Positions 12,301-49,923 of a stretch of 64,000 bases of DNA are shown piece by piece. The stretch comes from a virus. Taxonomy: Duplodnaviria > Caudoviricetes. Where the stretch lies: positions 288,001-352,000 of IMG/VR virus record IMGVR_UViG_3300037484_000435. The stretch is one strand, 5' to 3'. The notes beneath the pieces were generated by a model, which had not been told where the DNA came from, did not search any database, and worked only from the letters and a program-made list of their open reading frames with translations. Every line of letters begins with the position of its first letter. The stretch's first letter is position 1. Both the position numbers and the translations under genes were made by a program.

Positions 12301-15300
12301 TCGCTGCGGAATCCATTGCTGCTCGGGCCTGCACGTCAGCTTTTTGAGCCTCCTCAACCATGGCCCGCTTCTGATTAATCTTCTCTATATCACGTTTATT
12401 GTCTGGATTTAAAGCAACTAATTCTTCCGCCGTCATCTCCGCAATAGGTTTGGGAAGTAGATTTTGTGTTAAAGGAGCTACCTTTCCATAATTAGATGAC
12501 ATTGGTCCCCACGAATAAGTTGCTTTTTGTAGTTCGGCACCAGCAACCCCTGTAACCTCATTACGATTCCATCCGAGTTCTGCACGTTTTATTTCCAACC
12601 TCGCCCTCTCAACAGCCTGCATCTCTTTGAACAGTCTCATCATTGCTTCCCCAGCTGTGATGATACCGGCGTAATTATCACGTAATTCTTCCAGTTTCTT
12701 GTTAAGGGCATCATACTGCTTAACACCAGCATCAATTTCTGATATTCCTCGTGCAATCTCATAACCTGCCGTTCTTGCTGCCCTTAACGGAACCTCCGCT
12801 TGTGCTTTATCACGCAAGGCGTTTAACGCCTGTTCAATAGAGCTAAGCCTATCTATTTGTGGCCCTAATTCCTTTTCACTTATTTTTCCGGCCTTGCGAT
12901 CTTCTAGTAATTGTTGTCTGCGCTTCGCAACAGCTGTTAGCTGCTCCTCAATCTCTGTACCCGCGGCGGACACCTTTTTAGATTTAGTTTTTCCCTTTAG
13001 ATCTTCCAAGTTATCTAGAAAAGGAATAGTTTCCTCCATATTTTTTAACTTGTCATCCTGTGCACGAGTAATCTTACCACCTAAAGCTAGAAAAGTTTCT
13101 CTCATCCCCACTGCTTCCGCAGGAGTAGCACTAACTATTCGTTTTGCTTGGTTTTGAAAATTTATAAAATCACTATACTTTCCACCTTCATTTTTTGTAA
13201 CTTCTTTTTGGAGCTTAGGATTATTTTCTAAAGTAATAAAACCCAGTTGTTGTTGTAATTTAGTTCGCTCACCTACACTCTTTTGTGATATCTCTTGCAT
13301 TTGTGACTGGTAGGCCTTTTCTTCAGATTCAAAACGGGTCCATGCTTGATAAACAGCTGGTTGTTCTTGCTTAAACCGATCCATGGGAGTAGCTTCTGTT
13401 ACATCCCTCATCCGTTGTTGTATATCTGGTCCACCAAAACCTCTACCAAATCCCATATTTTCTTTTGAAGTTTTAAATGTTTGGGCAAGCTCTTCACTGG
13501 CGGCACGAGCTTTTGCAAAAGCGGCTGTTAAAGCAAGAACTTCGGCATTATCATTCTTCAACGATTGCCTCCTTAATTCCATTTCCTCCAATTCCTGCTT
13601 GATTTTTTCTGGATTATCAGAAATCTTCAATGCTTGAGCCTTCATCTTATCTCTGAGCGCTTCTATTGCTTTTTCCAACTCTTGGGTAGGTGTAGGACCG
13701 ACACCCATTGCTTTTAATGGACTAAATCCTAACAGGGGGTCAAACCCCAGAGTGTCTTTAGCACCTTTTCCCAAACCAGCAGCGATATTTATAACTTTAT
13801 CAATGCCACCTTCTTCTTGTGCCTGTCTTTTTAACATCGCTATTCTTTTATAATCTCGGTCTAATTCTCTGTAACCACTCTTATCCGTAGACTTTAGGTA
13901 CTTACCAAATTCAGTTTTACTAAGTTCGTCAAACGTACCTTTATCCCCGCCAATAAGCTCAGACATGTACCCTGTTTGTGACCTCATTCGGTCCTCCAAC
14001 ATTTCACTGTCCATCTTTTCATTAAAAGATTTCATACCAACCATCATGCCACCAGCACCAAGCAAAGGCACTAGAGCACTTGTTAGTTGGGAAGGAACAC
14101 TTACTGTAGATTGTTTTCGTAGATCTTCTAAGTCTTTATTCGCCCTAGCAAATTCTGACTGCTTTCTAGCCGCAGGGCTAAACGCGGACATATCGACTAC
14201 TGGATTAGCTTTACCAACCAATTCTATACCCATAATATTTTCATATATAAAATCTTTTATTTTGGTTCCCAAAGGCTTAACTAAATCATACGCTAAAGCG
14301 GATGCGGCTGCACCAGCAACAGTTCCCAAAGGACCCGCAAATACAGACCCCACAGCACTGAAAATCCCCATAAGTATACCTTGTAAGCCAAGGGCACCCA
14401 CCAATTCAGGGACAATAGATGTTAGACCACCAACACCATATTTTTCTTTTGCCTCAGTTACCCCAGAGATAGTTTCCGCTACAACCCCAACAGCTGGAAG
14501 GGCGTGTCCGACACCCCTTAATGCCGGTAAACTTTTTGCAACACTTGGAAATGCAGTAAGAATTTTTCCTGTGGCAGTTTTCCCCAAATGACCAAACTCT
14601 TCGGCCACAGGTAAACCCTTATTAAAATCAGCTATTGCTCGTTCTAGTGCGGCGGTCTCAGCTTTAGCCCCTCCCATGATTGTCTTTAACGTGCCACCCT
14701 CACCGAAGAGATTGCTTTTCCAAGTCATACCTTTCCCAGCGGCCCCTCCTATCTCTTGTGCTACCATTACATCTGGTCTTATTACTGACATCACACCTTG
14801 CCCAAAAGCTCTTGGCATTGCACCAACGTTTCCTAGAGCAGGTTTTCCACCACCTACATTCATCAGTATAGAGCCAAGTCCTGCGACACCAGCAATACCT
14901 CCGTAGGCTTGTGCATGTGACAACTTAAATGTCTCTTCCAACTTAGAAGCAGCATACTCAGTCCCCATCATAGTCAGCATCATACCAGTCATTCCAGCAC
15001 CTTTACTCGGAGAAAGTCCTGACGGCCTCGGCATACCAGTTCTCTCCAACTCTTGAAAGGCCAAACTCATACCACGTATATTTGTTCGTATATCTCGATT
15101 ACCTTCCGCCAAGGAAGCTGAAAATCTCTGGATTTCCTTTCCAGCTTGGCTCATAGGGTCTATCATCTCAGCTTTAAGGAAGTCATTTATTCTTGCTTGT
15201 AAAACATCACGTGTTAATGGCTGTTGCACTGTACCAGGAGCCCCTTCAGTTTGGGTCAATGTCGCGTGGAGTCTCTGGGTAATTTCTCCTGCATTAATTG

Positions 15301-44552: not shown

Positions 44553-45647
44553 TTATTCTTTGGTGAATTTTTTACTCTTTGAAATACCCTTAGACTTTTT
44601 AAAAGTAACGCCGTCTTGTCCTGGGTCATCTTTCAAAGAGATATCGGCAACATTCCCAGCTTTAGGATTTGCCCGATCATACTGCCTATCCAAGTATTCT
44701 GGATGCGACTGCATAATTAATCTGGTGCTCATCTTCTCCGCCGTAGAGCTACCATATTTTTTCTCGGCCCGCCTTTCTGACCTGTCTTTCGATCTTTCCT
44801 TATGCAAGTCTTCCATATACTCGTCTAGTGCTCCATCATCTTGGATGACCCAGTCATCTGGCTGGTCCTCTGGAAGCATTTCATAAATAGATTGATAATA
44901 CCCTGTCCACCATAATAAGTTCTTTTGGTCAGGTGTCAATTCTATAGACGATTTTGGAAATAAATGAAGATTACCTTTCTGTGCGACTAAATAGTCCAAC
45001 CGCCACAAATTACTTCGGGCGATATACCTGATTTCTTCTGTCGTATGTCCAACTAAATATCTTAGAAACTCAGACAGAAGTTTGTTTTTGAGCTCAACTT
45101 TCCTTTCTACCTCCTTGCAATAGGTTAGGTAATTGTCCCATAATAACTCATCCGTTTCGGGGTCAAAACAGCAAGCCCATAACATGTAGTCATATTTGGC
45201 TTGTCGTGCTCTCCGTTCAGCAGTATTTGACATCATTATCTCGCGTTTCTTCTCGGCTTGAAATAATTCTTCCTCTAACTTATTTATACTCTCCTGAATG
45301 TAAGGCTTATAAGTAACATCAATATCTACGTCTGACATTTTTCTTTTATTCATGTCAAGTAATTTATGAATAGTTTCAACTTTTTTATCATCCTTTTCAG
45401 TCCAAATTCCGCGCTCACGCATTAGTTTGTCCATTTCAGATTCATTCATAATGTTGTCTTTTTTGGCACGGAACATAACACGGCGTTCCTCTAAATTCGC
45501 AAGGAGGGTGGTGTGACGGGAAGGATAACGGAAAATAACAAAAATAGGGAAATCCTCAGAGAAAAGAGAAACCTCAACAAGTCTTTGAGAAAAACATATC
45601 TGTTCTATTGTTAGTTGTAACTCGTCAAGAGTCCAATCAATAGACAT
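44553..45647 (-). CDS. Putative tail assembly chaperone, long paralog (G-T-like), directly upstream of the TMP
   Basis: Position immediately before the TMP. The N-terminal 2/3 is similar to 47859-48566 (MSNTAERRARQAKYDY...D.ETDELLWDNYLTY). It has an extra C-terminal domain (RYIARSNLWR...YYQSIYEM...PDDWVIQDDGALD). ATG at 45647 is preferred over the GTG at 45659. Confidence 0.65.
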   Translation of the reverse strand: MSIDWTLDELQLTIEQICFSQRLVEVSLFSEDFPIFVIFRYPSRHTTLLANLEERRVMFRAKKDNIMNESEMDKLMRERGIWTEKDDKKVETIHKLLDMNKRKMSDVDIDVTYKPYIQESINKLEEELFQAEKKREIMMSNTAERRARQAKYDYMLWACCFDPETDELLWDNYLTYCKEVERKVELKNKLLSEFLRYLVGHTTEEIRYIARSNLWRLDYLVAQKGNLHLFPKSSIELTPDQKNLLWWTGYYQSIYEMLPEDQPDDWVIQDDGALDEYMEDLHKERSKDRSERRAEKKYGSSTAEKMSTRLIMQSHPEYLDRQYDRANPKAGNVADISLKDDPGQDGVTFKKSKGISKSKKFTKE

Positions 45648-46542
45648 GCAAATCACCATACTTTATAATTCTATAACTACTCAATAGATCCCATTTTCTT
45701 GATAACCCAAACTGAACACTATTTCGACAGTCAATTAAAAATTTCTCGGCACGATTACCCCCTAGAGTATAATAACTATAAGTCCCAAAGTCTTTTACCT
45801 GACTAATCCGAGGAGCACCATAAGTGGAATCACAAAAATTCTTAATCCAAGCCAACAGATATCTGGTTCCACAAAAGCCTGTTACTAACGTGGGTATATT
45901 GTGTTTTTTATTCCAACCAAGGGAGACCCACCCATCACCATCAAGAAGTCCTTTAAGATAGGGCAGTATCAAATCATTATCTAATAACTTAGGGGGACGA
46001 AGTGTATAGGTCTTTTGCGGAGTAATAGAAAAATTGTTATTTAAATCTATATACCACCCCTTAATCCCAGAAATACGTATTTCAGCAAAATAGGAATTTT
46101 TACTAAAACCCCTACTTTTTCGAGAATGTATTTCCCCAGAAAAATGAGTCTCTGCTTTAAAAGATCCCAAAACAGAAGCATCCTTCTCAGCCAAACCTAT
46201 AGTTAATTGGTATCTATTTGCAGATAAGTTACCATCGGCAGCAATAAAGCCTGCCCAGTAAGAGTTGTGTGTATTCGGTTCGGAAAAGTAATCCAAATCA
46301 ACGGTTGTTCTGACTCGTCCTAAAGACAAGGTGTGGGAGGTATCACCTTTTATACCCAACCTCAGAAGTCTATTACTAACCGCACCTTTGCTCTTACCAA
46401 GTTGTTGTGAAATTTCTTTACGATTAACCTTTTCATAAAGAGATAATAGTAGCCTATCTTCTTCGGGAGTCCAATGTTTATACCCCTTAGTATTCTGAGG
46501 ATTGCGTGATTGGAGTTCATCTAAGGACCATTCTACTGCCAT
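45637..46542 (-). mobile_element. Free-standing LAGLIDADG homing endonuclease with one Myb/HTH-like N-terminal repeat
   Basis: SYWAGFIAADG and YLKGLLDGDG motifs; HWTPEEDRLLL repeat; C-terminal LSRKW. Confidence 0.88.
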
Positions 46543-46555
46543 CTATTTCTCCAAT

Positions 46556-46591
46556 AAAAAAGGACCTACTAACAGACGTTAGTAAGTCCTT
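46556..46591 (-). terminator. Rho-independent terminator
   Basis: Minus-strand RNA AGGACUUACUAAC-GUCU-GUUAGUAGGUCCU-UUUUU: a 13-bp stem with one U-G pair, a 4-nt loop and a U tract, between 46606 and 46542. Confidence 0.8.
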
Positions 46592-46605: not shown

Positions 46606-47748
46606 TTAAGCAGGGATACCTACTTGTCTTTCATATTCTTTTATCTTGCCCCATTTACGAGCAAGACGTGTTGGGGTTGGGACTTTTTGTAACTCTTTGA
46701 GGATACGGTAAGCCCTCTTTCCACCTACTTTATAAGTAAAAGCCCTTGAACCTTTTATAGGATGGACTTTAGCATTTATCCCATACATAGAAGGACAAAT
46801 TTTGTCAAATATTTCCTTCGCCCACTCAAGTAAATTTTGAGTCCCTGTGATGTTAATAATAGGATAAATATGGCCCCACTTATCGGGCTTACTAGGAAGA
46901 ATAATAGAACCGTCTCCATCAATAAGACCCACCATAAAGGCCAAACTATTTTCATAGTTAAGCTTGGTCGGTGGTTCTAATACGAGCGTTTTATTCTGTA
47001 CAATGTTAAAGTTGTTCTTTAGGTCCTGCACCATCTGTTGTGCAGAGGAAAACTCTAGAAAACTCATTGGTGTCTTACCTTTTACACTAGTTGTTAACCT
47101 AGTACGAATGTCACCAGTAAACCTAGACAAACTTGCAAAAGAAGTAAGAACCAGACTATCCTTCAAATGTAGAGAAATACGCACAGTGGCACGTTCTTCA
47201 TCAACAGACCCATCTGCCGCAATAAAGCCCGCCCAGTAAGAATTACAAACATTTGGTTCCTTAAAAAATTCTCTATTGTAATCATAACGTCTACGGTATG
47301 AAGACGGGTCTTTCTTCAAACCCAACCCACGGGCATGGCTTGTAATTGTCCGATAGTCTTTGTCTGGTATCAAATCTCTAAGCTCTGATACGGGTTTTTT
47401 TAAATAATTACTAATTAATATCTGCTCTTCACCCTCAGACCACCGAGTACGTTTTTCTAAACCAAGGGTTAAGATTTTTTTCTTAATCGCTGTTTTGGAA
47501 CGAGCAGAACAGAGACCTAGAGAGACTATCTCGTCCACTGTAAGATATTTATAATTTTCTATTAGGGAAGCAATATCTTCCTGAGACCATTCGGACTTAA
47601 TGTAGCCCCGCAACCCCAGTTGTTCTGCTTTTTTGTGAATTGATGCTTTCTTACGTAACGGTAGAAGTTTTTCCATATCTATTGCTGGTATCCTTGAATA
47701 GTTAATCATCATAATTTCAATTTCTTGTGGTGTCCATTTATTTGCCAT
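46606..47748 (-). mobile_element. Free-standing LAGLIDADG homing endonuclease with three Myb/HTH-like repeats
   Basis: SYWAGFIAADG and FMVGLIDGDG; repeats KWTPQEIEIM, EWSQEDIASL, RWSEGEEQIL; C-terminal LARKW. AGGAG RBS. Confidence 0.9.
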
Positions 47749-47858: not shown

Positions 47859-48566
47859 TTATTTCTTTTTAGAATTTTTTACTTCTTTTTCTTCAACTTT
47901 TGCTTTAGGTTTTGCTTCTTCTATTTCCTTTGTACTTTCGGCTTCTTCTATCTCTTTGCGAGCAAGTGCCTCAGGAGTAGTCTCAAGAAAATTTTCTGCC
48001 AGACCCTGAAGTGCCAACATTACGGAGTAGCGTGAGCGCATTGCCAATGTGGGGTTGGAAGTAGTTTTATATTCGTCATAAGACTCCCAAACCTTGTCAC
48101 CATTTGAGTCTTTGACCATTGCAGAGGTAAGGTATTCTATTCTAGCATCCTCTGCCAATTGTTCTACGCTGTTAGACATAGGGCTAGAAGCTCTTTGGTT
48201 CCACCTAAAGAGTCTGTTTCTCACGTCTTCTACCTTCTCTGCACACACTTTCTTTTCATCAAGAGTCTTAGCACTATTAAGTTCCGCAATACCTTCGTCT
48301 AACTCCTTAATAAGAGCCACACGTTTTTCCTCGTACTTCTTACCAATGATATCCCTTTCTTCCAGAATATCCTGCATCTGAGCCATGGTAGTAACACCAG
48401 CCAAAAGTGCCTCATTGTAAGTCTTGCTATAGAACCAATCTGCCTGACGTACTTCGTCAATGCCAGCATTGTCAATAAAATACTTCTCTCCGTCGTGAAT
48501 AAACGTTCTTTTGTCCTCAAAGATATCCTGAAGAGTTTGTTCATCCTTTTTAGTTTTATCAGCCAT
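47859..48566 (-). CDS. Putative tail assembly chaperone, short paralog (G-like)
   Basis: Acidic, helical protein between the tail tube and the TMP; paralogous to 44553-45647 (MSNSVEQLAEDARIEY...DSNGDKVWESYDEY). GGAGG RBS. Confidence 0.65.
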   Translation of the reverse strand: MADKTKKDEQTLQDIFEDKRTFIHDGEKYFIDNAGIDEVRQADWFYSKTYNEALLAGVTTMAQMQDILEERDIIGKKYEEKRVALIKELDEGIAELNSAKTLDEKKVCAEKVEDVRNRLFRWNQRASSPMSNSVEQLAEDARIEYLTSAMVKDSNGDKVWESYDEYKTTSNPTLAMRSRYSVMLALQGLAENFLETTPEALARKEIEEAESTKEIEEAKPKAKVEEKEVKNSKKK

Positions 48567-48887: not shown

Positions 48888-49820
48888 TTAAATCTCTGTC
48901 TCCTCATCACTTTCTGAATTACCTTTGCCAAATATCTTTTTGAGCCAACGTCGAATTCTAAGAAATCTAAACCACTTTCTCTTTTCCATTTTTTCTTCTA
49001 CAATTACCTCAGCATCAATAGGCTCTATCTCCTTAACAACCACAACCAAAGGTGGCACCTCAGTAGTTTCTCTTTCTTCAAACAAGTACGTGTAGTTACG
49101 CATTTGTTCTTTGTAGAGCTCTGTTGCATGTTGGTATAAACGTAAGTCTAGTTGATTGCGGTCCTCAATTAACTTAATTACTCCTTTTGGTAATTCTTCC
49201 TTAGTTAATCTGTCAGAAACATTAACCATAGGGAGGTTAACTTCCGGCCACCCTAATTTATGTGAACAAATTTTTATAAAACTCGGTAACTCCTCATACA
49301 AACTGAAAAAGGTAAAGGCATCTGATAGACGGGCTTTAGCATAAGCAAACATCAATTTTTTACTACCCGCCCGTAAAAAAGAGGAAAGAACTTGCGTTTG
49401 AAAATCAGACATGCCCATCTCATACACCATATCCTCACTACGCAAAATTTCCTCTAGTGAAAACTGTAGAGCTTTCTGGTGTAATGCATGATCCTCTCGG
49501 CCTCTCAAAAAATAATACTGAGAAATGACACGGTCAATGGGCTCACGAACCACTACATATTGATTTATAGTAATTTTTAAACGGCTATAAAAAGGGTCAC
49601 AAAGCCGGTAATGCCCCAATAAAGCCTTATAATTTCCAATTGTCCCCTGCTCAATAAGAGAAAGCACTTCTCTAGCTGTAGCTTTCTTGTAAGCGTCCCC
49701 ATATATACTCCCGAGTAACTCAGAGATGGAATTCCCCGCGGTTTTCGGCATGTGAAAAAATAATTGTAAATTGTTAGAGTTAAACTGCTTAGACACAAGA
49801 TTAGTAAAATTGGTTGGCAT
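48888..49820 (-). CDS. PAPS-dependent sulfotransferase family protein
   Basis: 5'-PSB motif FFHMPKTAGNS and 3'-PB motif VVVREPIDRVISQYYF, plus DF(N)FQT and NQLDLRLY motifs. The ATG at 49820 has an AGGAG RBS; the ORF track extends it to 49889. Confidence 0.85.
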   Translation of the reverse strand: MPTNFTNLVSKQFNSNNLQLFFHMPKTAGNSISELLGSIYGDAYKKATAREVLSLIEQGTIGNYKALLGHYRLCDPFYSRLKITINQYVVVREPIDRVISQYYFLRGREDHALHQKALQFSLEEILRSEDMVYEMGMSDFQTQVLSSFLRAGSKKLMFAYAKARLSDAFTFFSLYEELPSFIKICSHKLGWPEVNLPMVNVSDRLTKEELPKGVIKLIEDRNQLDLRLYQHATELYKEQMRNYTYLFEERETTEVPPLVVVVKEIEPIDAEVIVEEKMEKRKWFRFLRIRRWLKKIFGKGNSESDEETEI

Positions 49821-49923
49821 CTGCCCTCTCCTTGTATGATCCCCATCTACCCTTCCTTTAAAAGGTGGGATGATACTGGAGACCAACATAGATCCCCAGT
49901 ATCAGTTAAATTACAACCTTTAA

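Follow-up and report, generated by a model that had tools for sequence, protein, structure and literature searches.

A LAGLIDADG endonuclease gene that may home without splicing by replacing the 5' end of a phage gene

The window analysed here, a stretch of 64,000 nucleotides, is part of a 545,322-base virus record from an uncultured phage. On its minus strand the genes follow in the order 561-aa gene, 333-aa sulfotransferase-like gene, 91-aa gene, 235-aa gene, HEG2, HEG1, 364-aa gene (hereafter the host gene) and a single open reading frame of 14,711 codons in the tape-measure position (Table 1). In relatives this giant reading frame is called at 12,526 and 16,603 aa. The sulfotransferase-like gene stands within the tail operon, where some relatives have it and others do not, and the 561-aa 'tube' gene gave no family match. 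A comparison with hhalign shows a distant paralogy between the 235-aa gene and the host gene (probability 91%, E 1e-6).

Table 1. Genes and sequence features of the locus, with their positions in the window.
Feature	Position	Strand	Remarks
Sulfotransferase_2-like gene	48888-49889	(-)	333 aa
235-aa gene	47859-48566	(-)	
HEG2	46606-47748	(-)	380-aa relative of HEG1, 32% identical to it
Hairpin (14 bp), then T-run	46560-46591	(-)	Terminator-like, z -5.3; belonged ancestrally to the host gene's 5' leader, now precedes HEG1
GGAGA	46548-46552	(-)	Shine-Dalgarno-like; original ribosome site of the host gene, now that of HEG1; L013 and L015 have GGAG at this position
HEG1	45637-46542	(-)	301-aa ORF; one Myb-like repeat (residues ~23-61) and a double-motif LAGLIDADG core
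Captured native host codons 1-11	46510-46542	(-)	In frame with HEG1; 29 bits on the host profile
Linker, HEG1 codons 12-22	46477-46509	(-)	Low-confidence, probably disordered; pLDDT <50 at residues 15-19
GGTGA	45653-45657	(-)	Shine-Dalgarno-like, within the last codons of HEG1; would serve the replacement start
Replacement host codons 1-11	45615-45647	(-)	First 11 nt overlap the last codons and stop of HEG1
Host gene	44553-45647	(-)	364 aa; tape measure gene directly downstream
Giant ORF	395-44530	(-)	14,711 aa, tape-measure position

The host gene has 79 homologues with the consensus start MxIxWSxEELQ, and across loci it always lies directly upstream of the giant reading frame. Its product found no match in Pfam, PHROG, PDB or BFVD at E<=0.001, nor any fold match. 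A reading made from the sequence only had called it a chaperone. Neither sequence nor fold matches a known chaperone, and we refer to it, by its place upstream of the tape-measure-position ORF, as a putative tail assembly chaperone. In the predicted structure residues 7-19 form the first helix with high confidence, which suggests that the gene could not simply lose its first residues. In one relative only (locus L013, 4329-6794), an 821-aa gene separates the host gene from the tape measure gene.

By its motifs and fold HEG1 is a double-motif LAGLIDADG endonuclease with predicted cleavage activity. The motifs end in D103-G104 and D203-G204, so that both catalytic aspartates are retained, and both are invariant in the three copies of HEG1 that we compared (64-75% identity). 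The structural model (pLDDT 89.5) places the LAGLIDADG helices at residues 91-103 and 189-203, and its top Foldseek matches are all LAGLIDADG nucleases (best E 6e-11). The best matches were I-Tsp061I (2dch, E 1e-14 in a profile search) and I-AniI (1p8k). HEG1 shares the two-motif monomeric fold and both catalytic aspartates with I-Tsp061I (2dch), I-DmoI and I-AniI; unlike HEG1, these are intron-encoded and have no N-terminal Myb-like repeat. The gene is under purifying selection, with differences of 0.18 at codon positions 1 and 2 versus 0.41 at position 3 between the window and a related locus, L001 (JGI 3300045429). It appears to lie outside any intron or intein: HEG1 ends in a stop codon of its own, and the complete host gene behind it has a separate start, which makes splicing unnecessary.

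The N-terminus of HEG1 departs from that of its family. The Myb tryptophan lies 2-8 residues from the start in 156 of 198 family members, but at residue 24 in HEG1, and matches of the wider family to HEG1 begin only at about position 15-24; HEG1 therefore carries an extra N-terminal piece. As no other in-frame start codon occurs before residue ~60, the nuclease depends on the start captured from the host gene. The linker that follows is identical to that of L001 at 5 of 11 residues. In L001 the gene caller begins the nuclease at residue 62, cutting off the captured start.

Both reading frames lie where the sequence-only reading had placed them, and the resemblance it described between their starts holds: MAVEWSLDELQ of HEG1 and MSIDWTLDELQ of the host gene share 7 of 11 residues and 20 of 33 nt, and the host-gene start overlaps the HEG1 stop by 11 nt in all. 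An overlap of 11 bp with the upstream gene is also seen in segF of T4. The BLOSUM score of the two starts over residues 2-11 is 42; when the N-termini of ORFs across the genome were paired, none of 229,503 pairs reached this value. Additionally, when 241,219 ORF positions were scored with a profile built from 39 host-family N-termini, the two copies took the top two places (29.05 and 28.99 bits, the next position scoring 13.5). The resemblance is thus not due to chance. Along HEG1 the host profile is positive through Q11, ambiguous at residues 12-13 and negative at 14-15, and the join therefore falls at codons 11-13, in line with the earlier proposal of an insertion around codon 11. The longest identical run common to both copies in the window is at most 5-6 bases.

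Endonuclease homologues elsewhere with the same start would have spoken against a capture, and the Myb-like repeat, which can begin W-S/T-x-x-E, had been raised as a caveat. None of the other family nucleases begins with the host peptide, the best N-terminal score among 185 being 10.4 bits, and anywhere in 303 other family proteins the host-peptide profile reached at most 16.2 bits against 29 for HEG1. On the other 32 family copies of the genome it reached at most 3.4 bits. A decayed Myb repeat that resembles the host start by chance is excluded on these grounds.

HEG1 is optional at this locus, given that cognate alleles without it exist. It is present in the window, in L001 and in an ENA contig (ERZ1426829), and absent in loci L003-L013, L015 and L024 and in three further contigs. 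Loci L003-L012 and L015 have no nuclease at all in the interval from the 235-aa gene to the host gene; in L013, L024 and two further contigs this interval contains a single gene, of HEG2 type or of similar size. L015 is the closest empty allele by sequence (81% over the called part), and its AINWSLDELQ runs straight into LRIEQICF, the very junction that had been predicted for empty alleles. The host gene of L015 has a 1-nt frameshift near codon 40 (~2810-2820) and is called from residue 54, probably owing to an assembly error at 5x coverage.

The non-coding sequence tells the same two starts apart. In L015 and L013 a homologous hairpin, T-run and GGAG precede the host gene, and these align with the leader ahead of HEG1. 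The working host gene of the window, in contrast, is preceded by codons of HEG1, with GGTGA five bases before its ATG. Since the host leader sits before HEG1 and not before the working host gene, the captured copy is the native one. On this alignment HEG1 has also taken over the host's hairpin and its putative ribosome site, which the earlier reading did not mention. The hairpin of L013 is split right after TTAC by an insert of ~145 nt (~2815-2960) with a GC-rich hairpin and then TCAA at its end; removing the insert restores a hairpin like that of the window. By its ends we take the insert to resemble a miniature element of the IS200/IS605 type.

The codons themselves agree with this polarity. 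Captured codons 2-11 match the empty alleles L015 and L003 at 23-25 of 30 nt, versus 16-19 of 30 for the replacement, and the captured copy is also the closer one to L007. The exception is L013, likewise free of HEG1, where the replacement matches at 18-20 and the captured copy at 15-17 of 30 nt. When the window is compared with L001, 2 of 20 first and second positions and 5 of 10 third positions differ in the captured codons, against 8 of 22 and 3 of 11, respectively, in the linker (contrast p=0.14, weak). Such third-position differences are as expected if the captured codons were host coding sequence until separate homing events, to which the pattern lends weak support. Taken together, the view that the nuclease became fused in frame to the start of the host gene and supplied a diverged duplicate is borne out by both the empty alleles and the N-termini of the family.

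The same arrangement recurs in other phages. L001 has an identical layout, in which the nuclease begins MAIEWSLDEIQ and the host gene MSIEWGLDRLQ, and GGGGGT stands in the place of the window's GGTGA; an identical leader stretch is shared by the two loci. The ERZ1426829 contig has HEG1 without HEG2, with the same 11-nt overlap. A further host protein, P0006, begins MSIEW; as its gene overlaps an upstream gene by 11 nt, we infer a fourth carrier. Our DNA comparisons of carriers cover the window and L001. Locus searches with the host protein alone, in genome_contigs and with the HEG1 alignment yielded no close carriers. In a tree that used the host protein from residue 21 on, P0006 clusters with an empty allele (97/94), and a single clade of carriers is rejected (p-AU 0.014), a result that depends on P0006 being a carrier and otherwise has no force. 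Scattered carriers would be compatible with homing; repeated loss could also produce them.

One part of the sequence-only reading was not upheld, namely that the replacement had been recoded. It differs from the empty alleles no more than do neighbouring 30-nt windows of the gene. Four of the five degenerate codons shared by the two starts do differ, as had been noted (L7, D8, E9 and L10; Q11 is the same), and three of five differ in L001. However, between phage alleles the same codon is used at only 47-57% of identical degenerate residues, so the count is not above background, and we rejected a special synonymous recoding. Most simply, the replacement would be the 5' end of a foreign allele that arrived with the nuclease at its first insertion, rather than a purpose-made recoding. 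A hint of escape may lie in host residue 6: the five closest known alleles without HEG1 have Ser there, and three carriers have T, G and N. Two replacements carry residues at positions 6 and 9 that are unusual for the host family. Compared with a 22-mer that has the rebuilt junction at its centre, the replacement copy shows 4 mismatches and the nuclease copy 9.

HEG1 belongs to a large Myb/LAGLIDADG family with 3,298 representatives at E<=1e-10. The genome that contains the window (G000) holds about 31 Myb/HTH-LAGLIDADG ORFs, one of them split by a frameshift (388683-389515), and the 256-kb genome G004 (locus L008) gave 33 family matches. A genome-wide check of 33 family ORFs found a 5' duplicate only in HEG1. 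The neighbouring HEG2 is an ordinary intergenic insertion without a captured host start. We had considered that it might be an earlier, decayed capture of the same start, in a cluster like that of yeast WHO elements, and rejected this: HEG2 scores -3.6 bits on the host profile, and the HEG2 of L024 abuts the host start without any duplicate. HEG2-type genes occur without HEG1 in L013, L024 and others, occupying the same spot in several related phages; the copy of L013 is frameshifted. The HEG2 of L024 is 68% identical to that of the window and the host gene 56%, so that HEG2 identity does not track the host gene.

Elsewhere in the genome a Myb/LAGLIDADG ORF (G000:C1:191398-192390, minus strand) follows a 338-aa epimerase-like gene, the pair being also locus L025 (499-1491 and 1549-2565). 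Across the stop of this ORF lies a repeat, matching at 21 of 24 nt, of the last eight codons of the upstream gene, including its stop. Among 1,040 mismatched flank pairs used as a control the match was at most 19, apart from one of 24. This layout is probably a mirror image of that of HEG1, at a 3' end. The epimerase relatives that we compared are too distant to polarise which of the two 3' copies is native.

How could such an arrangement arise? We propose, with a probability of roughly two in three, that HEG1 and the 11 host codons behind it form a homing cassette that needs no splicing and replaces the 5' end of its target gene. The moving unit would be the nuclease together with the replacement start. 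In a mixed infection, the nuclease would cut an empty allele within the gene's first codons or close to them; the left end of the recipient would then pair with the captured 5' fragment and its leader, and the right end with the gene body, and repair would introduce the nuclease together with the replacement start. From then on the nuclease would be driven by the start that had belonged to the recipient, and the host gene would be translated from the overlapped start, probably by coupling. An intact site would be present in neither copy of a carrier, as the left one would lack the right half and the right one would have a diverged left half. Whether the family in these megaphages homes in general by swapping gene ends, at the 5' end for HEG1, which would renew its first codons from every recipient, and at the 3' end for the relative behind the epimerase gene, is a more tentative idea, to which we give somewhat less than an even chance.

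The duplication could instead be a frozen accident. The nuclease would cut elsewhere, in the body of the host gene or in a neighbour, and an intergenic copy would have recombined once, by illegitimate repair, into a diverged phage, the 11 codons being kept only as a translation start. Free-standing nucleases of T4 as a rule cut hundreds to thousands of bases from their own gene (PMC2988022), so the site of HEG1 could likewise lie away from the junction. Moreover, plain intergenic insertions with overlapping stops and starts make up most of the ~31 family members in the genome. The replacement shows no excess divergence, and the leader stretch common to the window and L001 is compatible with common descent. 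Yet the captured codons show differences of the synonymous type and lie near present-day empty alleles, although the HEG1 copies are only 64-75% identical, and the atypical residues of two replacements also speak against a single accident. We consider this explanation unlikely, while giving it more weight than the remaining ones.

HEG1 could also be an immobile, domesticated regulator that binds DNA through its Myb repeat and LAGLIDADG core, with the captured leader controlling tail-gene expression or self-repression at a half-site. The many family copies per genome (31 in G000, 33 matches in G004), the terminator-like hairpin at the start of HEG1 and the autorepression of I-TevI at its operator would fit such a role. 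It is nonetheless improbable in view of the intact catalytic aspartates, the patchy presence and scattered carriers, and the frameshifted HEG2 relative of L013; autorepression could well be an add-on to homing. Least credible of all is a coincidence in which the start of HEG1 is a decayed Myb repeat. Family Myb repeats can indeed read WSLDE or WSLEQ (o191, P0275), but the profile scores given above stand against it, the tryptophan spacing of 19 is not that of a full repeat, and the host's non-coding leader came along too.

Replacement of gene ends is already known at 3' ends and, in phages, internally. The WHO elements at yeast FBA1, for which cleavage has been proven (Coughlan et al., 2020, PMC7282813), provide the closest comparison. 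They too have a LAGLIDADG-type nuclease (related to inteins in WHO) that homes without splicing, with the end of the gene replaced by a resistant version, and the displaced native fragment, from the 3' end of FBA1, adjoins the nuclease, where it is proposed to serve as a recombination arm. In contrast, HEG1 concerns a 5' end, in a phage, and only 11 codons, which are translated as the nuclease's own N-terminus. The WHO proteins are intein-zinc-finger fusions, unlike the Myb repeat and LAGLIDADG core of HEG1. A second parallel is found in the fungal mitochondrial mORFs, which have a foreign C-terminus, described for atp6 of Allomyces and for atp6, atp9, cox2 and nad3 of Glomus (PMC3630166). There, a mobile endonuclease ORF inserts along with a foreign version of the gene's end, so that a hybrid gene results, and the native end resembles that of relatives more than the inserted one does, as here; these cases are C-terminal and organellar with a silent native end, whereas here the exchange is N-terminal and the native end gives the nuclease its translation. 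HEG1 has in common with both systems that a version of the same gene end stands on either side of the nuclease, the gene remaining intact, and that the displaced copy is native and the functional copy foreign (L013 being the exception). The replaced 3' end with an unexpressed displaced piece has no counterpart in HEG1, whose displaced piece is the start of a reading frame.

In phages, the MobA nuclease of T4-like phages carries a replacement, homR, with 67-81% DNA identity to the target codons (10.1101/2022.08.31.505936). Like HEG1 it is a free-standing phage nuclease, and homR lies in an N-terminal extension, whose overlap with the nuclease ORF is out of frame and 8-32 nt long. Unlike HEG1, MobA is an HNH nickase inserted mid-gene that splits the gene, deletes a parental stretch and requires ribosomal bypass; in the case of HEG1 nothing is deleted, the host gene is whole (an unsplit 364 aa of normal length) and no bypass is involved. 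The polymorphisms of homR alone did not block nicking (10.1101/2022.08.31.505936), a warning for the idea that recoding protects. We found no paper on replacement of a 5' end with in-frame capture in a phage, although most subscription journals were outside our search.

A selfish nuclease thus appears to occupy conserved coding sequence with neither intron nor intein, gaining ready-made expression signals. It would also be hard to delete, because the ribosome site and start of the host gene lie inside the nuclease and the two copies have so few consecutive bases in common. For annotation the locus is a warning, as gene callers trim captured starts and the start and body of a gene can differ in history. 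Thanks to the duplication, the likely target of an uncharacterised LAGLIDADG family can be confined to a few dozen bases, which makes the specificity of HEG1 directly testable. If the gene-end mechanism holds for the family, it would be a general splicing-free route for phage nucleases into conserved coding sequence, and cut sites could be read from the duplications that they leave.
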